Shown here piece after piece: positions 12,807 through 63,551 of a stretch of DNA of 64,000 nucleotides (positions are counted from its first letter, which is position 1; each line of letters opens with the position of its first letter). The notes below the pieces were generated by a model. That model was not told where the DNA came from. It saw nothing but the letters and a program-made list of their open reading frames with translations, and did not search any database. Made by a program: the position numbers and the translations under genes. The stretch is from contig OY970320.1 in the NCBI GenBank assembly GCA_963716745.1, forward strand, positions 608,001 to 672,000, written 5' to 3'. The DNA is from an uncultured Gemmatimonadaceae bacterium. GTDB taxonomy: Bacteria; Gemmatimonadota; Gemmatimonadetes; Gemmatimonadales; Gemmatimonadaceae.

Positions 12807-13528
12807 GGTGATCGCAACACTCGCGGGTCGAAGCTGAAGACGACAGGAAGCACATCATCGGCGAAGCCGGTGGGCAGCGGCCCGAAGGCTTTCACCGCGG
12901 CGGCTTGCTCGACCGCGCCCTCGGCCTCGAGATCGAAGGCGAAATTCCCGGAGCGCGTGACGAACTGGATGCTGCTCGGCACGATCGAGCCATCGCGCCG
13001 AATGATGAACGATACTTCGGCGCGCACGGCGGAGTTCCCCTGCGGCTTGAAGCGCTGCGCGATCACCCGCACGACGTTCTCCAGATACTGCGGATAGGGG
13101 AACTCGGCGCCTTCGCTCTGCACCGTCACAATGTCGGTGCCGCGGCCCGCAGTACTGGGGGCCGGAGGCGCCGGATTCGGCGGCGCGGGCGGCGCCGGCG
13201 CGGGTGGCGTCTTCTTCGGCGGCGTCTTGGGAGGCATCTTCGGCGGCGCGGCCATGGCCTTGGGCGGCGGCACCACCTTCTTCGCCGGCGGACTCGGCGG
13301 CGGCGCCGGCGCCGGCGGAGGCGCGGCGGGCGGCGCGGGCGCCGGTGCCGCCGCGGGCTCCGGTGGCGCGGCCACCAGGTTCACATGATACGAAGGCGGC
13401 AGCGCCCGGCGCGGCGCCGGATGCGCCGAGAAGAGCGCCGTCGCGAAGATCGCGTGCAAGGCGAACGACGCCGCGATCGCCCACGCGATCGACGGCCGGC
13501 GGCGCATGGTGTCCGGGCGCGCGCTCAC
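12803..13528 (-). CDS. TolA/TonB-family energy transducer
   Basis: N-terminal TM segment with SxxLH, Pro/Lys-rich linker, TonB_C-like domain (FIIRRDG...SGNFAFD...PLP). Confidence 0.85.
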   Translation of the reverse strand: MSARPDTMRRRPSIAWAIAASFALHAIFATALFSAHPAPRRALPPSYHVNLVAAPPEPAAAPAPAPPAAPPPAPAPPPSPPAKKVVPPPKAMAAPPKMPPKTPPKKTPPAPAPPAPPNPAPPAPSTAGRGTDIVTVQSEGAEFPYPQYLENVVRVIAQRFKPQGNSAVRAEVSFIIRRDGSIVPSSIQFVTRSGNFAFDLEAEGAVEQAAAVKAFGPLPTGFADDVLPVVFSFDPRVLRSP

Positions 13529-57158: not shown

Positions 57159-58587
57159 TCAGCCCGCGGACACTCCGCCGTGCTTGCCGCCGGGCACGCC
57201 GATCTCGGTCATCTTGCGCAAATCGAGCGTCTCGTCGATCTCGGCGTCGGGCAGCACGTGCTCGCGGTGCACGAGCTCGCGAATGAGCGTGTTCTCCTTC
57301 ACCGACTGCTTGCTCAGCTCGGCCGCGCGCGCGTACCCGATCTGCGGGGCGAGCGCGGTCGCGAGCGCCGCCGAGCGCTCCACCCAGTACTCGCACATCT
57401 CGCGGTTCGCCTCGATGCCGCGCACGCAGCGCTCGGTGAATACCGTGAGCGCGTTCGTCGGTGATGCCGATCGCCTGGAACAGATTGTGCGCGATCACCG
57501 GCATCATCACGTTCAGCTCGAGCTGCCCCTCCGATGCCGCCATCGCAATGCATGCATCGTTGCCCACCACTTGGCACGCCACCTGGTTCACCATCTCGGG
57601 GATCGACGGATTCACCTTCCCCGGCATGATCGACGAGCCGGGCTGCACCGCCGGCAGCCGGATCTCATCGAGGCCGGTGCGCGGGCCCGACGCCATCAGC
57701 CGCAGGTCGCTCGAGATCTTCGCGAGATCGCACGCGAACGCGCGCAATTGCCCCGAGAACGCCGCGGCGTCGCCCATGCTCTGCATGAGCTGGATGCGGT
57801 CCGTTCCCTCGCGCAGCGCGAGACCGCTGATCGCTTTCAGATTCGCGACCATCAGCGCCGGATACTCCGGCTCGACGTTCACGCCCGTACCTACGGCGCT
57901 GCCGCCGATCCCGAGGTCGCGCAGATCGTCGGCCGCGTGCTCGAGCCGGCGGCGATTCCGCTCCACGGTATTCCCGTACGCGCGGAACTCCTGGCCGAGC
58001 CGGATCGGCATCGCGTCCTGGAGATGGGTGCGGCCGCTCTTGATGATCCCGTCGAACTCCTTGCCCTTCGCGAGCAGCGCATCGCGCAGTGCCGCCATCG
58101 CGCGGTCGAGATCGGCGGCCAGCTTGAGCGCGCCGAGCCGGATCGCGGTGGGGATCACGTCATTGGTGGACTGCGCCATGTTGACGTGGTCGTTCGGATG
58201 CACCGGTGCGTAGGCGCCGCGCGCCGCGCCGAGGATCTCGTTCGCCCGATTCGCGAGCACTTCGTTCGCGTTCATGTTGTGCGACGTGCCCGCGCCGGCC
58301 TGGAAGGGATCCACCACGAAATGCTCGCGATGCTGGTCCGCCAGCACTTCATCCGCGGCGCGCACGATGGCATCGGCGAGCCGCGGCTCGAGACGCCCCG
58401 TCTTCTTGTGCGTGAGGGCCGCCGCTTTCTTGATCCACACCACTGCGGTCACGAACATCGGCAGCGGACGCGCACCGCTCACCGGGAAGTTCTGCACGGC
58501 GCGCAGGGTCTGCACGCCATACAGCGCGCTGGCGGGGACCGCCAGCGCGCCGAGTGGGTCCTTCTCCGTGCGTGTCGCCTCCGTCAC
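57159..58587 (-). CDS. Aspartate ammonia-lyase / class II fumarase family (apparent +1 frameshift near 57460)
   Basis: YGVQTLRAVQNF, GTS.NMNANEV, HPNDHVNMAQSTND, KSGRTHLQDA and GSSIMPGKVNP. The C-terminus continues in ORF 57159..57425. Confidence 0.92.
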
Positions 58588-59388
58588 GGTGCTAGTACAC
58601 CCACCGTGTCGAACTTCGAGTAGCTGTACAGCAGGCCGTTGTTCGTGGTCGTCGCGTAGGTAGTGACCCAGCGGAATGCCGTCACGCGCTGGTAATAGTT
58701 CGCCGCCGTGTCCCAGTGCACCGCCATCGCGCGAGGCACGTAGATCTGGCCATCGTCATCGGCGGAGCAGATGATCTGGCGGTCCGGCACGAGGGAGGTG
58801 GGCGTCTCGTAGATCAGGTAAATGTTCACGGCATCCGTGCCCGGCACACCGGCCGTCCAGTTGATCGGGAACGAGTCGGTGGGATGCGACGGCACCGGCG
58901 CCAGCTCCAGCTTCTTCGCCGTGAGGGCGGGGATCGTCGCGGCATCGAATCCGCCCGACGCGCCGGGGATCGTGAACGCGATATTCGCGCCAGGAACGTA
59001 CTGGAATCCCGCGCCGTGATAGCGGTAGACGATCTGGACGTTCGGGATCGTATCCGGCTTCAGTGCGCCGGTCGAGAGCGTAGACACGAACAGGATCGAA
59101 TCGCCGGCATTCAGCTGGTTCGGCACCACGGCGTGCGATGTATCGGGCTTGAAATAGATCGTATCAATGCACGCATCCGGCGGTGCGTTGCTCCCGGGCA
59201 GCGAGACGTTCGACGCATCCCAGAACACGGCCTGCGGCGAGGTCAGATAACCGCCGACGCCATCGGAGGAGTCGCCGAGCGTGATGACGCCCAGCGGCCG
59301 CGACGTCGGCGGCGATGCGCTGGAGCCGCACCCCGCGGCGATGGCGGCGATCGACGAGCATGGTGCACAGACGAGCACTGGGTCGCAT
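58584..59388 (-). CDS. Hypothetical lipoprotein (apparent +1 frameshift near 59355)
   Basis: ATG 59388 with a GAGGA RBS gives MRPSARLCTML|SIAAIAAGC (lipobox) after one-base correction. The body is beta-rich and Thr/Pro-rich. Confidence 0.62.
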
Positions 59389-59546: not shown

Positions 59547-60191
59547 TCAGCCACCCGCGGCGACGCGCGCCAGACCATTCAAGAACGGATTCTCGGCGCG
59601 TTCGCGCGCGATGGTCGTGGCCGGACCGTGGCCGCTGTAGACGACAGTTGCGTCACCCAGCGCCGCGATTCGCGCGAGCGTGCGGCCAAGCTGGCGGCCG
59701 TTCGCCAACGGAAGATCGGTGCGCCCGATCGAGCCAGCGAAGAGACAATCGCCGACGAACGCAACGCCATTCCCGTGGATCACGACGTGGCCCGGTGCGT
59801 GGCCGGGCGCGTGCAGCACCGTGAACGCGAGCGATCCGACGCGCAGCACTTCGTCGTCGGCGAACTCCCCGTCGGGATCGGGCGGCTGCTCGATCGTCGT
59901 GCCGAACATGAGACCGTGCTCCGCCGCGGCGCGATAGAGCGGCAGGTCGGCGGGATGCAGGAGCACCGGCACCGGGAGTGCGCGCTTGATCGCCGCGATC
60001 GCGCCCACGTGGTCGACGTGGCCGTGGGTCACCCAGATCGCGTCGAGCGTCGCACCCGATTCGCGCACCGCCGCGAGCAGCCGCGAGGCCTCGTCGCCGG
60101 GATCGATCAGCACCGCGTGGCGCGTCGCGTCGTCGATGAGGAGATAGGCGTTCTCCTGCATCGGCCCGACGGTGAACGCGCGGATGATCAT
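59547..60191 (-). CDS. MBL-fold metallohydrolase (glyoxalase II-like)
   Basis: THGHVDHVG, PGHAPG, GDCLFAGSIGRTDL and GHG. Confidence 0.93.
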   Translation of the reverse strand: MIIRAFTVGPMQENAYLLIDDATRHAVLIDPGDEASRLLAAVRESGATLDAIWVTHGHVDHVGAIAAIKRALPVPVLLHPADLPLYRAAAEHGLMFGTTIEQPPDPDGEFADDEVLRVGSLAFTVLHAPGHAPGHVVIHGNGVAFVGDCLFAGSIGRTDLPLANGRQLGRTLARIAALGDATVVYSGHGPATTIARERAENPFLNGLARVAAGG

Positions 60192-61180
60192 CGCGCGACG
60201 GCCGCCGCTCCATGCACGGCCGCGGCGGCGCGCTCATGGTCGCGGCGCATCGCCAGATATTTCTCGGCCGCGATCGTCGCGGTGGTCGCGTCGCCCGCCG
60301 CGGTCGTCACCTGGCGCGTGAGCTGCGCGCGCACGTCGCCCGCCACGAACAACCCGGGCAGCGATGACGACATGTTCTGGTCCGTGACGATGTAGCCGGA
60401 CGCATCGTGCTGCACGTGTTCCTGCAGGATGCCGGTGTTCGGCTTGAATCCGATGAACACGAACAATCCGCTCGCGGCGAGCGCGCGCGATTCGCCGGTG
60501 ATCGCGTCGCGGAGCATCACGCGGTGCACGAGACCTTCGGCGTCACCCTCCACGCGCTCCACGAGCGTGTTCCAGATCACTTCGATCTTCGGGTTCTCGG
60601 CCACGCGCTTCTGGATGATCTTCGATGCGCGGAATTCGTGGCGCCGGTGGACCAAGTAGACTCTCTCGGCGTAGCGCGTGAGGTAATCCGCCTCTTCGCA
60701 CGCCGCATCGCCGCCGCCGACGACCGCGATCGTATGCCCGCGGAAGAAATGGCCATCGCACACCGCGCAGTACGACACGCCCTTCCCCGCGAACTCGAGC
60801 TCGCCGGGCACGCCGAGCTTCACGGGCGTGCCGCCGGAGGTCATGATCACGGCGGGCGAGCGGTACATGTCGCCGGTGTCGCTTACGGTCTCGAACGTGC
60901 CATCGTGGAGCCGACGCAGCGCGACGACGTTCACGCCGGTCGCGATCTCGACGCCGAATTTCTTCGCGTGCTCCTCGAACTTCTGCGCGAGCTCCCAGCC
61001 GTCCACGCTCTGGAAGCCGGGATAGTCCTCGACCTTCTCGGTGTTGAGCAGTTCGCCGCCCGGCGCGCCCTTCTCCAGCGCCACGGCGCGCAGCATCGAC
61101 CGGCCCGCGTACAAGGCGGCGGTGAGCCCCGCGGGCCCCGCGCCGATGATCACGATGTCGTATTCGAGCGTCCGGGCCAC
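60188..61180 (-). CDS. trxB: Thioredoxin-disulfide reductase
   Basis: GAGPAGLTAA, GKGVSYCAVCDG, GGGDAACEEA and GLFVAGDV...RQV.TA.GD. Confidence 0.95.
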   Translation of the reverse strand: MARTLEYDIVIIGAGPAGLTAALYAGRSMLRAVALEKGAPGGELLNTEKVEDYPGFQSVDGWELAQKFEEHAKKFGVEIATGVNVVALRRLHDGTFETVSDTGDMYRSPAVIMTSGGTPVKLGVPGELEFAGKGVSYCAVCDGHFFRGHTIAVVGGGDAACEEADYLTRYAERVYLVHRRHEFRASKIIQKRVAENPKIEVIWNTLVERVEGDAEGLVHRVMLRDAITGESRALAASGLFVFIGFKPNTGILQEHVQHDASGYIVTDQNMSSSLPGLFVAGDVRAQLTRQVTTAAGDATTATIAAEKYLAMRRDHERAAAAVHGAAAVAR

Positions 61181-61250
61181 AATGCGTCCTCACGAATGAT
61201 GCCGACGGTTAAATATGGCGACTCCCGCAAGGGTCCGCCCGCTCCGCCGC

Positions 61251-61985
61251 CTACCGGATGTGACGTCCTCCGTCCACGATGAGCGTGTCGCCGGTCACGT
61301 ATTCCGCCTCGAGCAAGTAGAGCACCGCGCGCGCCACGTCATCGGCGTTGCCGATGCGCCCGAGCGGGGTGGTCTTCGCGAGATGCTCCGCGTCGGCCGC
61401 GCTCCAGCTCGCGGGCAGCATCACGGCGCCGGGCGCGATCGCGTTCACGCGGATGTGCGGCGCGAGCGCGAGCGCCAGTTCGGTGGTCATGTGGATCACG
61501 CCTGCCTTCGAGATGCCGTGCGGCACGTAGGCCGGCCACGCCTCGAGCCCCGCGAGATCGGCGATGTTCACGATCGATCCACCGCGCGTGCCCATCACGC
61601 GCGCCGCGGCGCGTGCGCAGAAGAATGGCGCGCGCAGGTTCAGCGCCATGATCTCGTCCCACTGTTCCACTGTCACGTCGGCGACGGGCGTGCGCACCAT
61701 GCTCGCCGCCGAGTTCACGAGCACGTCGAGCGCTCCGAAGTGCGCGGCCGTGTCGCGCACCAGTCGCTCGGCCTCGGCGGCGTCGCGGAGATCGGCGGTG
61801 ACGGCCCATCCCTCGCCGCCGGCGGCTTTCAGTTCCTGGACGAGTTGGTCGGCCTCCTCGCGCGATGCGTGGTGATGCACCGCGATGCGCATCCCGCGTG
61901 CCGCCAGCGCGACGGCGATCGCCCGTCCCACGCGACGGCCGGCGCCGGTCACGAGCGCGACGCGCCCTGCGAGCGCGAACGTCAC
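61251..61985 (-). CDS. SDR oxidoreductase (pteridine reductase/FolM-like)
   Basis: TGAGRRVGRAIA, LVNSA, IVNIAD and RVNAIAPG. The usual YxxxK is replaced by HGISK. Confidence 0.82.
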   Translation of the reverse strand: MTFALAGRVALVTGAGRRVGRAIAVALAARGMRIAVHHHASREEADQLVQELKAAGGEGWAVTADLRDAAEAERLVRDTAAHFGALDVLVNSAASMVRTPVADVTVEQWDEIMALNLRAPFFCARAAARVMGTRGGSIVNIADLAGLEAWPAYVPHGISKAGVIHMTTELALALAPHIRVNAIAPGAVMLPASWSAADAEHLAKTTPLGRIGNADDVARAVLYLLEAEYVTGDTLIVDGGRHIR

Positions 61986-62428
61986 GCGTTCAAGGCGGCG
62001 AGCACCTCGGCGGGGGGTGGCGCGCCGCGTTCGCCGAAGCGGATCACACCGTCGCGTCCGATCAAGTACACCGTGCGCTGGATGCCGCGCCCGTCCTCCT
62101 TGAGCGCGTGGTACGCGCGCGCGATCGAGTGATCGGCGTCGCTGAGCAGCGGGAAGCCGAAGGCGAATTTGGCCGCGTACTTCGCGTGGCTCTCCACGCT
62201 CGCCGGATTCACACCGAGGGGCTGAACGCCTGCTTTATGGAACGCTGCCATCTCATCGCGCACGGCGGAGAGTTGTTTGTTTCAGCCAGGGGTGTTGTTG
62301 CCCGGATAGAAGAACAGCGCGACGCCGCCGTCGCGCAGCAGGTCGGCGAGCGCGTAGCGCCGCCCGTCGTCAGCTGGCGCGTCGAACGCCGGCGCGGGCG
62401 TCCCACGCGCGAGCGGCACGCCGGTCAC
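61982..62428 (-). CDS. BCP/PrxQ-type peroxiredoxin with in-frame UGA at the peroxidatic position (candidate selenoprotein)
   Basis: GTG start with GGAGG RBS. FFYPGNNTPG[TGA 62282-62284]NKQLSAVRD...FPLLSD...RTVYLI...G.IR in one frame, 148 aa. Confidence 0.85.
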
Positions 62429-63282
62429 GCGACGACCTCCGACGCGGAACGCGACCGCACCAGCGCATCCTGCCGCTCGAGCCACTCGGCCGGCACGTTC
62501 ATGCAGCCGATCGTACGCGGCCCTTCCGAGGCTCCGTGCCAGTCCGAGCCGCCGCTGGGCAGCAGCTCGAGTTCGGCGGCGAGCGTCGCGAGGCGTGCGG
62601 TCTCGGAGACGCCGTGCCCGGGATGGCGCACTTCCACGCCGTCCATGCCCGCGGCCGCGAGCGCGGCGAGCTTCTCGCGCGTGCCATCGGGCCCCGGATG
62701 CGCGATGACCGCGAGTCCGCCCGCATCGTGGATGAGCGCGAACGCTTCGGGGATCGTGAGTCGGCGCTTCTCGACGAACGCGGGCCGGCCCGCGCCGAGC
62801 CAGCGGTCGAAGACCTCGCGGTGATCCTTCGCGAAGCCGCCCGCGACGAGCGCCCGCGCGACGTGCGGACGGCCGATCGCCGCATCGCCCGCCTGCTCGA
62901 GCACCGCCTGGGCGGTGACCGGTATCCCGAGCGCGTTCAAGCGCTCGACGATCTCGAGCGCGCGCGCGCGGCGCGCGGTGCGGAAGATGTCGAGGGCATT
63001 CTGCAGCGGCCCGGGTCGCGCAATGTGCAGTCCGAGGATGTGCACCTCCGCGCCCGCGGAATCGACCGCGCTCAACTCCACGCCCGCGATGACGCGCACG
63101 CCTACGCGGTCGCCCGCGGCGCGCGCCTCGTCGAACCCCGCGAGTGTGTCGTGATCGGTGAGCGCGATCGCCGCGAGTCCCGCACCCAGCGCCGCGGCGA
63201 CGACCGCGGCCGGCGCCTGCGAGCCATCCGATGCCGTCGAGTGCATGTGCAGATCGACGCGCGCACCGGCGATGGTGCTCAC
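62425..63282 (-). CDS. PHP-domain phosphoesterase (TrpH/YciV-like)
   Basis: DLHMHSTASDG, ALTDHDT, GVELS, HILG, GRPHVA, AHP and GGSDWHG. Confidence 0.93.
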   Translation of the reverse strand: MSTIAGARVDLHMHSTASDGSQAPAAVVAAALGAGLAAIALTDHDTLAGFDEARAAGDRVGVRVIAGVELSAVDSAGAEVHILGLHIARPGPLQNALDIFRTARRARALEIVERLNALGIPVTAQAVLEQAGDAAIGRPHVARALVAGGFAKDHREVFDRWLGAGRPAFVEKRRLTIPEAFALIHDAGGLAVIAHPGPDGTREKLAALAAAGMDGVEVRHPGHGVSETARLATLAAELELLPSGGSDWHGASEGPRTIGCMNVPAEWLERQDALVRSRSASEVVA

Positions 63283-63551
63283 CGCGAGTAGCCCGCTTCG
63301 GGCGATCGCACGCTCGACTGCGACTGCGCGAACAGGCGCTGGAGCTCGGCGCCGCTCAGCTCGGCGAACGAGGCCTCGCGCACGCGCGCGCCCTGCGGCG
63401 AGTATCGCGTCACGCGGACCTCGGGCGGTGCGCCCGCCGGCGCGCGGCGCGTGAACAGGAGCGTGAATTCATCGCGGTCGGACTGGGTGATCCGCCCCGC
63501 GGGGGCGACCTCCCACGTGTCGCCGCCGACGGTGATCGTGCGCACGGGCAT
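63279..63551 (-). CDS. Small hypothetical protein
   Basis: 90-aa ORF whose start and stop overlap those of its neighbours. Confidence 0.7.
   Translation of the reverse strand: MPVRTITVGGDTWEVAPAGRITQSDRDEFTLLFTRRAPAGAPPEVRVTRYSPQGARVREASFAELSGAELQRLFAQSQSSVRSPEAGYSR

Follow-up and report, generated by a model that had tools for sequence, protein, structure and literature searches.

Selenocysteine (Sec)-containing peroxiredoxins are already established, and PrxU of Eubacterium acidaminophilum, described by Sohling and colleagues in 2001, is said to be the founding member. In a 2026 review (PMC13188914), the entry 'Peroxiredoxin (Prx), PF00578, TxxU' appears among the prokaryotic selenoproteins with experimental verification, and the motif PxxxTxxU is described. 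An earlier survey by Zhang et al. 2006 (PMC1794560) put the number of Prx selenoproteins with a T/SxxU site at 12 and concluded that cysteine (Cys) had been replaced by Sec on several occasions. In the present study, we analyzed a stretch of 64,000 nucleotides from an uncultured Gemmatimonadaceae bacterium (assembly GCA_963716745.1, contig OY970320.1, positions 608,001 to 672,000), hereafter the window, in which a peroxiredoxin frame on the minus strand (61982-62428) is broken by one UGA codon. The evidence indicated that this is very probably an intact gene for a BCP/PrxQ-type peroxiredoxin, in which UGA codon 49 is recoded as Sec via a 21-nt hairpin and which likely acts as a 1-Sec peroxidase. 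The gene adds a mis-annotated member, typical of Gemmatimonadales, to the known family.

The main texts of PMC13188914, PMC1794560 and the BSepDB paper do not mention Gemmatimonadota (Gemmatimonadetes) in connection with the Sec-Prx family, and literature searches combining the phylum with selenocysteine returned nothing that appeared relevant. In BSepDB, 64,762 genomes were analyzed with known-family queries, and Table S1 of its supplement, which lists the analyzed genomes, contains 323 rows matching 'Gemmatimonad'. Gemmatimonadota Sec-Prx genes may thus already be catalogued in that database.

Gene frame and in-frame TGA

The peroxiredoxin frame contained a single interruption, the TGA at 62284-62282. 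An open reading frame (ORF) list made with translation table 11 split the gene into two parts, 62282-62485 (67 aa, starting at an upstream GTG) and 61982-62263 (93 aa). A previous reading of this DNA, made from the sequence only, had proposed that the two ORFs were one frame broken only by the TGA and that the 148-aa product lacked Cys altogether. Both points were borne out: the frame lies on the minus strand, and its read-through product of 148 aa, which includes FFYPGNNTPG-U-NKQLSAVRDEM, has a Cys count of zero. The full-length relatives that carry Cys at the position of the UGA (Cys forms) are 147-152 aa long and start at the same point as the 148-aa protein.

Selenocysteine machinery of the host genome

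The host genome consists of one contig of 3.29 Mb, with a marker-gene completeness of 89.8%. The sequence-only reading had proposed a search for selA, selB, selC and selD, and all four genes were found above the respective cut-offs. SelA (486 bits) and SelD (389 bits) exceeded their curated cut-offs, and SelB reached 347 bits against a cut-off of 242. ARAGORN placed a tRNA with the anticodon tca immediately downstream of selD, and the tRNA-Sec model of Rfam (RF01852) matched with 73.2 bits, above its gathering score of 47. The Sec machinery (selA, selB, selC and selD) is complete in the host genome.

A second gene with an in-frame TGA was found in the same genome outside the window (C1:486670-487077 on the minus strand, TGA at C1:486955-486957, locus L135). 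Its product matched PF00578 (E=9.3e-22) and carries the motif F-W-U-P-N-C (UxxC), 3' of its UGA lies a strong hairpin with the loop GGG, and TGA-bearing homologues were seen in many relatives. It is a putative second selenoprotein gene, of the 'Prx-like thiol:disulfide oxidoreductase' type, and its presence counts in favor of the Sec reading of codon 49. A genome scan for in-frame-TGA genes based on the GC content of third codon positions gave 44 candidates, nearly all of which were adjacent same-frame genes or non-coding frames. That scan recovered the UxxC gene and missed the present peroxiredoxin gene; it is not usable as a census of the selenoproteome.

Conservation of the TGA and alternation with cysteine

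When 61 related genomes were searched, each of the 25 top matches (52-99% identity, from three families of one order) contained exactly one TGA, which stood in the T-P-G-U column in all 25 orthologues; weaker matches mostly contained no TGA. Of the 25 genomes with the TGA form, 22 had a detected SelA, and the 10 further genomes of the 61 in which SelA was not found all lacked the TGA form. In a sample of 301 genomes drawn evenly across the phylum, with an orthologue threshold of E<=1e-35, an orthologue was found in 76 genomes, with TGA in 71 and without it in five. By family, matches came from 10 of 69 genomes of f1, 61 of 125 of f2, 3 of 3 of f3 and 1 of 3 of f12, and the other eight sampled families contributed none. 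Public genome contigs, when scanned, yielded 70 loci, comprising 57 TGA loci, 12 Cys loci (seven from Gemmatimonadaceae or Gemmatimonadales and five from Vampirovibrio) and one distant Cys homologue. When duplicates were removed from the 120 fetched loci, 97 distinct Sec-form loci remained. Some counts include genomes flagged as unpublished, namely G012 (locus L023) in several of them, including the 25 orthologues, the 301 genomes and the 97 loci, and G102 and G216 in the 301-genome sample only; no conclusion depends on them.

The TGA column aligned with Cys in the Cys forms, and the distant homologues also carry Cys there, mostly within a CxxxxC motif. An alternation between UGA and Cys at codon 49, which the sequence-only reading had suggested looking for, was therefore found, with TGA in 25 of 25 orthologues and Cys in other relatives. 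A quick maximum-likelihood (ML) tree of 92 distinct proteins grouped 75 Sec forms and eight Cys forms into one clade of 83 rows, with a support of 97 in the Shimodaira-Hasegawa-like approximate likelihood ratio test (SH-aLRT). Seven of the Cys forms made up a subclade (SH-aLRT 99) nested among the Sec forms, and the minimum number of state changes was three. Because of this nesting and of the decaying SECIS-like (Sec insertion sequence) stretch in the Cys forms described below, the tree suggests a reversion from Sec to Cys in the nested clade. The backbone forks of the tree were weak (80-83), and the well-supported branches alone are compatible with a single origin.

The nearest homologues outside Gemmatimonadota in the contig scan were the Vampirovibrio loci (L108-L112, from Vampirovibrio chlorellavorus and relatives), which showed 45-47% identity, a CxxxxC motif and no shared synteny; horizontal transfer is possible. 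The other BCP paralogues examined from Gemmatimonadota genomes (L041-L044) showed 39-45% identity by the same tblastn and are at most slightly more distant than the Vampirovibrio loci.

The distribution bears on the explanation that the TGA arose by nonsense mutation or through an error of assembly, so that the gene would be a pseudogene or the codon really TGC or TGT. Errors do occur, the genome is incomplete by markers even though it is one contig, and the assembly has at least one apparent frameshift nearby, in an aspA/fumC-like gene (window 57159-58587). However, the same TGA occupied the same codon in 97 distinct loci of independent assemblies, with protein identities down to ~47-52%, both halves of the gene were under purifying selection, the downstream element co-varied with TGA versus TGC, and the Sec machinery was present. 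Because the TGA is conserved across independent assemblies, we consider sequencing error and a pseudogene to be excluded on the comparative evidence; the probability of this explanation is close to nil.

Sequence constraint downstream of the UGA

The 21-mer CUCUCCGCCGUGCGCGAUGAG begins 9 nt 3' of the UGA. The coding sequences of the 25 orthologues shared 56-96% nucleotide identity (median 66%), and across them the 21-mer was invariant save for one U/C position and one outlier. In the larger set, the canonical 21-mer was found in 92 of the 97 Sec-form loci, synonymous sites included, with GAU in 69 and GAC in 23. The spacer codons were also conserved among the 25 orthologues, with AAC in all of them and CAA in 23. 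Within codons 50-59, six of the seven invariant columns with degenerate residues used a single codon in the 25 sequences, compared with one of 27 elsewhere in the gene (Fisher p=3.5e-5, a value that overstates the contrast since the sequences are related). The sequence-only reading had noted an unusual number of A/U-ending codons in this region. That remark held for CAA and for GAT/GAC, which stand at conserved positions of the recoding region, and failed for AAA, which was not conserved.

The Cys forms provided a comparison at the same site. The eight Cys-form members of the clade had eight different sequences in place of the 21-mer, 1 to 11 positions away from the canonical one, and the final GAG was lost in all of them. 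The peptide that follows was kept: it started with N-x-Q-L in all eight, and seven had a near-complete C-N-R/K-Q-L-S/C-A-V-R-D-D, the remaining one (L040) reading CNRQLTMLQDE. Because the Cys forms keep the peptide yet differ in nucleotides, the constraint at the 21-mer acts on the RNA and is tied to the TGA, and we regard the Cys forms as a decisive natural control. When the host genome was searched for the element, the 17-nt core occurred only at the peroxiredoxin locus, and the 12-nt core occurred 40 times without a pattern in this GC-rich genome.

Predicted structure of the recoding element

RNAalifold applied to the 25 orthologues gave a consensus structure with an 8-bp stem, two single-base bulges and a CGU loop. 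An equally good alternative fold had 3+3 bp around a 2x2 internal loop and a CGUGC loop. Both folds place the beginning of the apical loop 17 nt from the UGA, with G at loop position 2 followed by U (62263-62262). According to the legend of Fig. 2 of PMC13188914, the bacterial SECIS (bSECIS) model has a loop of 3-9 nt with G among its first two nucleotides, a stem of 4-16 bp, a spacing of 16-37 nt and a minimum free energy (MFE) of <= -7.5 kcal/mol. The loop size, the G position, the stem length and the 17-nt spacing of the present hairpin all fell within this geometry. The hairpin at 62252-62272 had been proposed from the sequence nine nt after the UGA, and it proved to be the RNAalifold consensus; the conserved downstream structure to be checked for among homologues turned out to be this 21-nt hairpin, under nucleotide-level selection only in the TGA forms. 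A non-canonical recoding structure, which had also been suggested, is unnecessary because the local hairpin matches the bSECIS geometry.

The five Sec forms with a non-canonical 21-mer were also folded. A stem-loop was predicted at the same place in all five, and the apical-loop G-U was present in four. L115, which belongs to a different family and is 47% identical, had a perfect 6-bp hairpin, CUCUCA-AGUU-UGAGAG, with the loop 15 nt from the UGA. In L118, L124 and L126, the joint changes CUC>CUG and GAG>GAC re-paired the lower stem in a shifted register; L126 was the weakest variant (-4.0 kcal/mol), with a predicted GCC loop. In L026, the joint changes G>U and U>G gave a new CUCC/GGAG stem with a loop beginning with GU.

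A longer-range pairing of GGCUGAA, spanning the UGA, with UUCAGCC (62220-62226) had been proposed as well and did not stand as a conserved element. The UUCAGCC partner lies 55 nt downstream, and the pairing belongs to the 86-nt MFE fold of this sequence, a fold that is not unusual (z = -1.51; equal or better folding in 17 of 200 shuffles). All seven pairs were complete in only three of the 25 orthologues, all of the window's own genus.

The same data bear on whether the UGA is instead read as Cys or tryptophan (Trp), by near-cognate suppression or a lineage-specific code, with the 21-mer as a general read-through stimulator. Such decoding would agree with a hairpin weaker than the bSECIS energy threshold and with the indirect nature of the evidence for Sec insertion. 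Against it, TGA is the ordinary stop of the flanking genes and of the peroxiredoxin gene itself, and the in-frame TGA aligns with a redox-active Cys, which is the classical Sec/Cys pair. Furthermore, selA, selB, selD and tRNA-Sec are maintained, the TGA form tracks the presence of SelA, and the loop bears the G-U required by the bSECIS model. We consider decoding as Cys or Trp highly improbable, and Sec remains the preferred assignment of codon 49.

Protein family, fold and database representation

The protein matched PF00578 (AhpC/TSA) with E=9e-32 and 110.1 bits (cut-off 26), in an alignment that spans positions 2-122 of the 124-position profile. In a PDB sequence search, the closest solved sequences were of the BCP/PrxQ type (5enu at 8e-22 and Xanthomonas BCP at ~1e-16), and 12 of the 13 best matches were BCP, a BCP homologue or the BCP-like 5enu, the thirteenth being the AhpE structure 5id2; typical 2-Cys Prx had E values of 1e-8 or worse. 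The protein is thus nearer to BCP/PrxQ than to AhpC/Prx1, Prx6, Tpx or Prx5. JGI names the Cys-form relatives 'peroxiredoxin Q/BCP'. An AlphaFold2 (AF2) model built from 33 aligned sequences (the query and 32 relatives) had a pLDDT (predicted local distance difference test) of 94.8 and a pTM (predicted template modelling score) of 0.91, and formed a single compact thioredoxin-fold domain, in which helix 47-58 carries residue 49 in its first turn. The top Foldseek matches of the model were BCP, PrxQ and AhpE structures, with template modelling (TM) scores of 0.82-0.88. The active-site residues P42, T46 and R118 were invariant in the 33 aligned sequences and in the 25 orthologues. These results agreed with the PxxxTxxC peroxidatic motif and the BCP/PrxQ type that had been read from the sequence. 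Since the NCBIfam cut-offs for BCP, PrxQ and PrxU were not reached (for PrxU, NF040737, 42.4 bits against 270), the protein belongs to a divergent clade of the BCP/PrxQ subfamily and is not an orthologue of a characterized enzyme.

We also examined how the family is represented in the protein database. Among the best 120 matches, 76 were full-length relatives, none of which was a Sec form; 74 of them had Cys at the catalytic site and two had Arg or Ser. The other 44 were shorter than 120 aa (89-101 aa in those printed), covered the C-terminal part and were named 'peroxiredoxin Q/BCP', some of them in NCBI records. These 44 short proteins are truncated gene calls of Sec forms.

Short proteins of this kind would also be expected if the UGA mostly terminated translation, giving a 48-residue peptide and an 89-93-residue C-terminal piece from an internal start; the pieces would then act as a split protein, or have no activity in the absence of selenium. 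UGA recoding usually does not reach 100% efficiency, and the 44 C-terminal pieces fit such an outcome. However, termination would divide the active site between the pieces, with P42, T46 and U49 in the first and R118 in the second, and the modeled protein is one compact domain. A gene caller blind to TGA necessarily yields such fragments, and the internal starts vary among the relatives (M, or V from GTG). We therefore regard predominant termination as very unlikely, and a full-length Sec protein as the reading to be preferred.

Proposed catalytic mechanism

In the proposed mechanism, UGA codon 49 would be recoded by SelB and Sec-tRNA(Sec), with the hairpin at 62272-62252 as the signal. The U49 selenolate, activated by T46 and R118, would reduce a hydroperoxide and be converted to a selenenic acid. 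The latter would then be reduced directly, via a transient selenenylsulfide, by an external thiol partner, for which thioredoxin is the probable candidate. The reductase encoded two genes downstream would in turn recycle thioredoxin and is the probable ultimate electron source. A thioredoxin-system reductant is supported because the cluster with the thioredoxin-reductase-like gene is conserved.

The residue at +5 after U49, the position at which atypical 2-Cys BCPs typically, though not universally, have their resolving Cys, was compared among the groups. It was Ser in 97 of 97 Sec forms, whereas the eight Cys-form members of the clade had Ser in five, Cys in two and Thr in one. Among the 76 full-length database relatives, it was Ser in 42 and Cys in 26 (41 and 25 by a scripted motif, with two more read by eye), and in the distant Gemmatimonadota BCP homologues L041-L044 a second Cys stood at +5 in two and at +6 in two. 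Because the protein has no Cys and carries Ser at +5, the enzyme most likely works as a 1-Sec peroxidase; the earlier expectation of a one-Sec enzyme without a resolving Cys agrees with both features.

The Ser codon UCC at +5 sits in the 5' arm of the hairpin. For this reason, we infer a physical link between the recoding signal and the absence of a resolving Cys. A more tentative and rather doubtful extension of this idea is that the Gemmatimonadales Sec-BCP depends on a minimal SECIS that is read by sequence, that the recoding signal locks the enzyme into the 1-Sec mechanism, and that reversion to Cys frees the +5 codon. If true, this would be a natural case of an RNA recoding element dictating the catalytic mechanism of an enzyme, and it would imply a lineage-specific SelB recognition below the thresholds of current SECIS predictors.

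Points weighed against Sec recoding

Several results count against the proposed recoding and enzyme function and were considered together. The evidence for selenium incorporation and for a full-length protein is indirect. The hairpin is weak, with -5.1 to -5.4 kcal/mol for the 21-mer by itself and -7.9 when 45 nt are folded, against the bSECIS limit of -7.5, and in longer contexts RNAfold favored other pairings. Compensatory changes were found at none of the eight pairs of the core hairpin because the core sequence is invariant. Its structure is thus suggested by the invariance of synonymous sites and by five variant sequences, three of them from one genus, which amount to few independent events. 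A lower-stem extension (alignment columns 11-14 with 38-41) was rejected: its four pairs formed in 10-18 of the 25 sequences, 82% of cells paired compared with 82.1% in shuffles, and there was no excess covariation. A search with Rfam over 61900-62500 gave no SECIS or credible match, the best being an unrelated sRNA with E = 1.7. SelA was missed in three of the 25 genomes with the TGA form (G005, G040 and G054), which are fragmented metagenome-assembled genomes that are 83, 95 and 85% complete, respectively. At the protein level, the scores fell below the NCBIfam equivalog cut-offs for BCP (NF006960, 74 bits against 140) and PrxQ (NF053650, 62.8 against 260). In addition, no thioredoxin gene was identified among the six neighboring ORFs scanned (59547-63551 and 58584-59378). 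With these points taken into account, we still hold the recoding of codon 49 as Sec to be very probable.

Gene cluster and other features of the window

The coordinates of the gene, the recoding element and the neighboring genes are collected in Table 1.

Table 1. Features of the Sec-peroxiredoxin locus, in window coordinates.
Feature	Position	Strand	Basis or remark
Sec-containing BCP/PrxQ-type peroxiredoxin, coding sequence (predicted)	61982..62428	-	GTG start 62428-62426, stop TGA 61984-61982; 148 codons + stop
In-frame UGA, codon 49, peroxidatic position (P42-x-x-x-T46-P-G-U49), assigned Sec	62282..62284	-	Frame and homologue alignment
A-rich 9-nt spacer AAC AAA CAA, from UGA to hairpin	62273..62281	-	AAC and CAA conserved; middle codon variable
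SECIS core, 21 nt, CUCUCCGCCGUGCGCGAUGAG	62252..62272	-	RNAalifold consensus, sequence conservation
Putative Shine-Dalgarno-like GGAGG, 7 nt 5' of GTG start	62436..62440	-	Read from sequence
PHP-domain protein, upstream neighbor	62425..63282	-	PF02811 1.4e-11
Short-chain dehydrogenase/reductase, downstream neighbor	61251..61985	-	PF13561 1.1e-53
Thioredoxin-reductase-like flavoprotein, CAVC motif	60188..61180	-	Two genes downstream; PF07992 (Pyr_redox_2) 1.2e-47
90-aa ORF, directly 5' of PHP gene	63279-63551	-	No match in Pfam

The peroxiredoxin gene is tightly packed between its neighbors. Its GTG start overlaps the stop of the PHP gene (GTGA), and its stop overlaps the GTG start of the short-chain dehydrogenase gene (GTGA). 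The cluster runs in the order conserved 90-aa protein, PHP, peroxiredoxin, short-chain dehydrogenase, thioredoxin-reductase-like flavoprotein and metallo-beta-lactamase-fold protein, and this order was retained in most Gemmatimonadales loci, in Sec and Cys forms alike, and not in the Vampirovibrio loci. The adjacency to the PHP gene was kept in most related loci of both forms, and that to the short-chain dehydrogenase gene was retained in related loci. Most related loci with flanks long enough also contain the thioredoxin-reductase-like gene in this cluster, in agreement with the earlier statement that the peroxiredoxin gene lies two genes upstream of trxB. The 90-aa ORF occupied the same position in most related loci, with 38-100% identity, and was missing from six with short upstream flanks; given this positional conservation, it is part of the peroxiredoxin cluster.

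Two further observations concern other parts of the window. The aspartate-ammonia-lyase/fumarase-like gene at 57159-58587 (minus strand) has an apparent frameshift, with a 514-aa ORF that turns into Arg-rich nonsense after VIAHNLFQAIGI, and a plausible C-terminal part (FTERCVRGIEANRE) continues in a different frame (57159-57494). The break reflects an indel of the assembly or else a genuine pseudogene, and it fits the marker completeness of this single-contig genome. ARAGORN also called a 96-nt 'tRNA-Ala (tgc)' at 13395-13490 (C1:621395-621490) on the minus strand, far longer than a normal tRNA-Ala, and two further long tRNA-Ala(cgc) calls (79 and 98 nt) elsewhere in the genome. These long calls may be intron-containing genes or false calls.

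Significance

Standard annotation splits or shortens the present gene and at least 96 orthologues in other assemblies. The main small peroxiredoxin of a conserved redox cluster is thus effectively missing from Gemmatimonadales proteomes, because 44 of the 120 best database relatives are fragments and the 76 full-length ones include no Sec form. Gemmatimonadota, a phylum widespread in soils, appear committed to selenium for peroxide defense, since 71 of the 76 orthologues in the phylum sample carry TGA. The paired Sec and Cys clades, with a frozen and a relaxed SECIS, respectively, offer a compact data set for training SECIS predictors and for studying the conversion of Sec to Cys. The finding leaves the knowledge of Sec encoding and of peroxiredoxin function unchanged.

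Comparison with known systems

The gene was compared with the described Sec-containing peroxiredoxins and their Cys counterparts. Like the Prx (TxxU) selenoprotein family, the present protein belongs to PF00578, has Sec in place of the peroxidatic Cys in PxxxTxxU according to the proposed decoding, and has a candidate SECIS inside the coding sequence just 3' of the UGA. It differs from PrxU, of which it is not an orthologue, in being a short 148-aa protein of the BCP/PrxQ type, without Cys and from Gemmatimonadota. The 'Prx-like thiol:disulfide oxidoreductase' selenoproteins (UxxC) share the Pfam family and have a member in the same genome, the gene at C1:486670-487077 described above. In that type, however, Sec is located in a thioredoxin-like UxxC motif rather than in PxxxTxxU, and the identity to the present protein is 34%.

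The closest solved sequences and folds are those of the Cys-dependent BCP/PrxQ enzymes of Xanthomonas campestris (5iiz and 3gkk) and Burkholderia ambifaria (5enu), which have the same active-site P, T and R. These enzymes use Cys, whereas the present enzyme would use Sec and has Ser at +5. Mycobacterium tuberculosis AhpE (1xvw) has a similar fold (TM 0.86) and resembles the proposed enzyme in having one catalytic chalcogen and no resolving residue, so that an external reductant is needed. AhpE relies on Cys, belongs to a different Prx subfamily and shows lower sequence similarity (E ~1e-9).

At the RNA level, the present hairpin resembles the bacterial SECIS consensus, as given in PMC13188914, in its stem-loop ~10 nt after the UGA, its small loop with G and then U, the single-base bulge in the 3' arm and the spacing of 17 nt within the 16-37 nt range. 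The minimal SECIS of E. coli fdhF likewise resembles the present hairpin. In contrast to the consensus, the present hairpin is very short and weak (-5 kcal/mol alone), and its conservation across three families of one order extends to the sequence as well as the structure.

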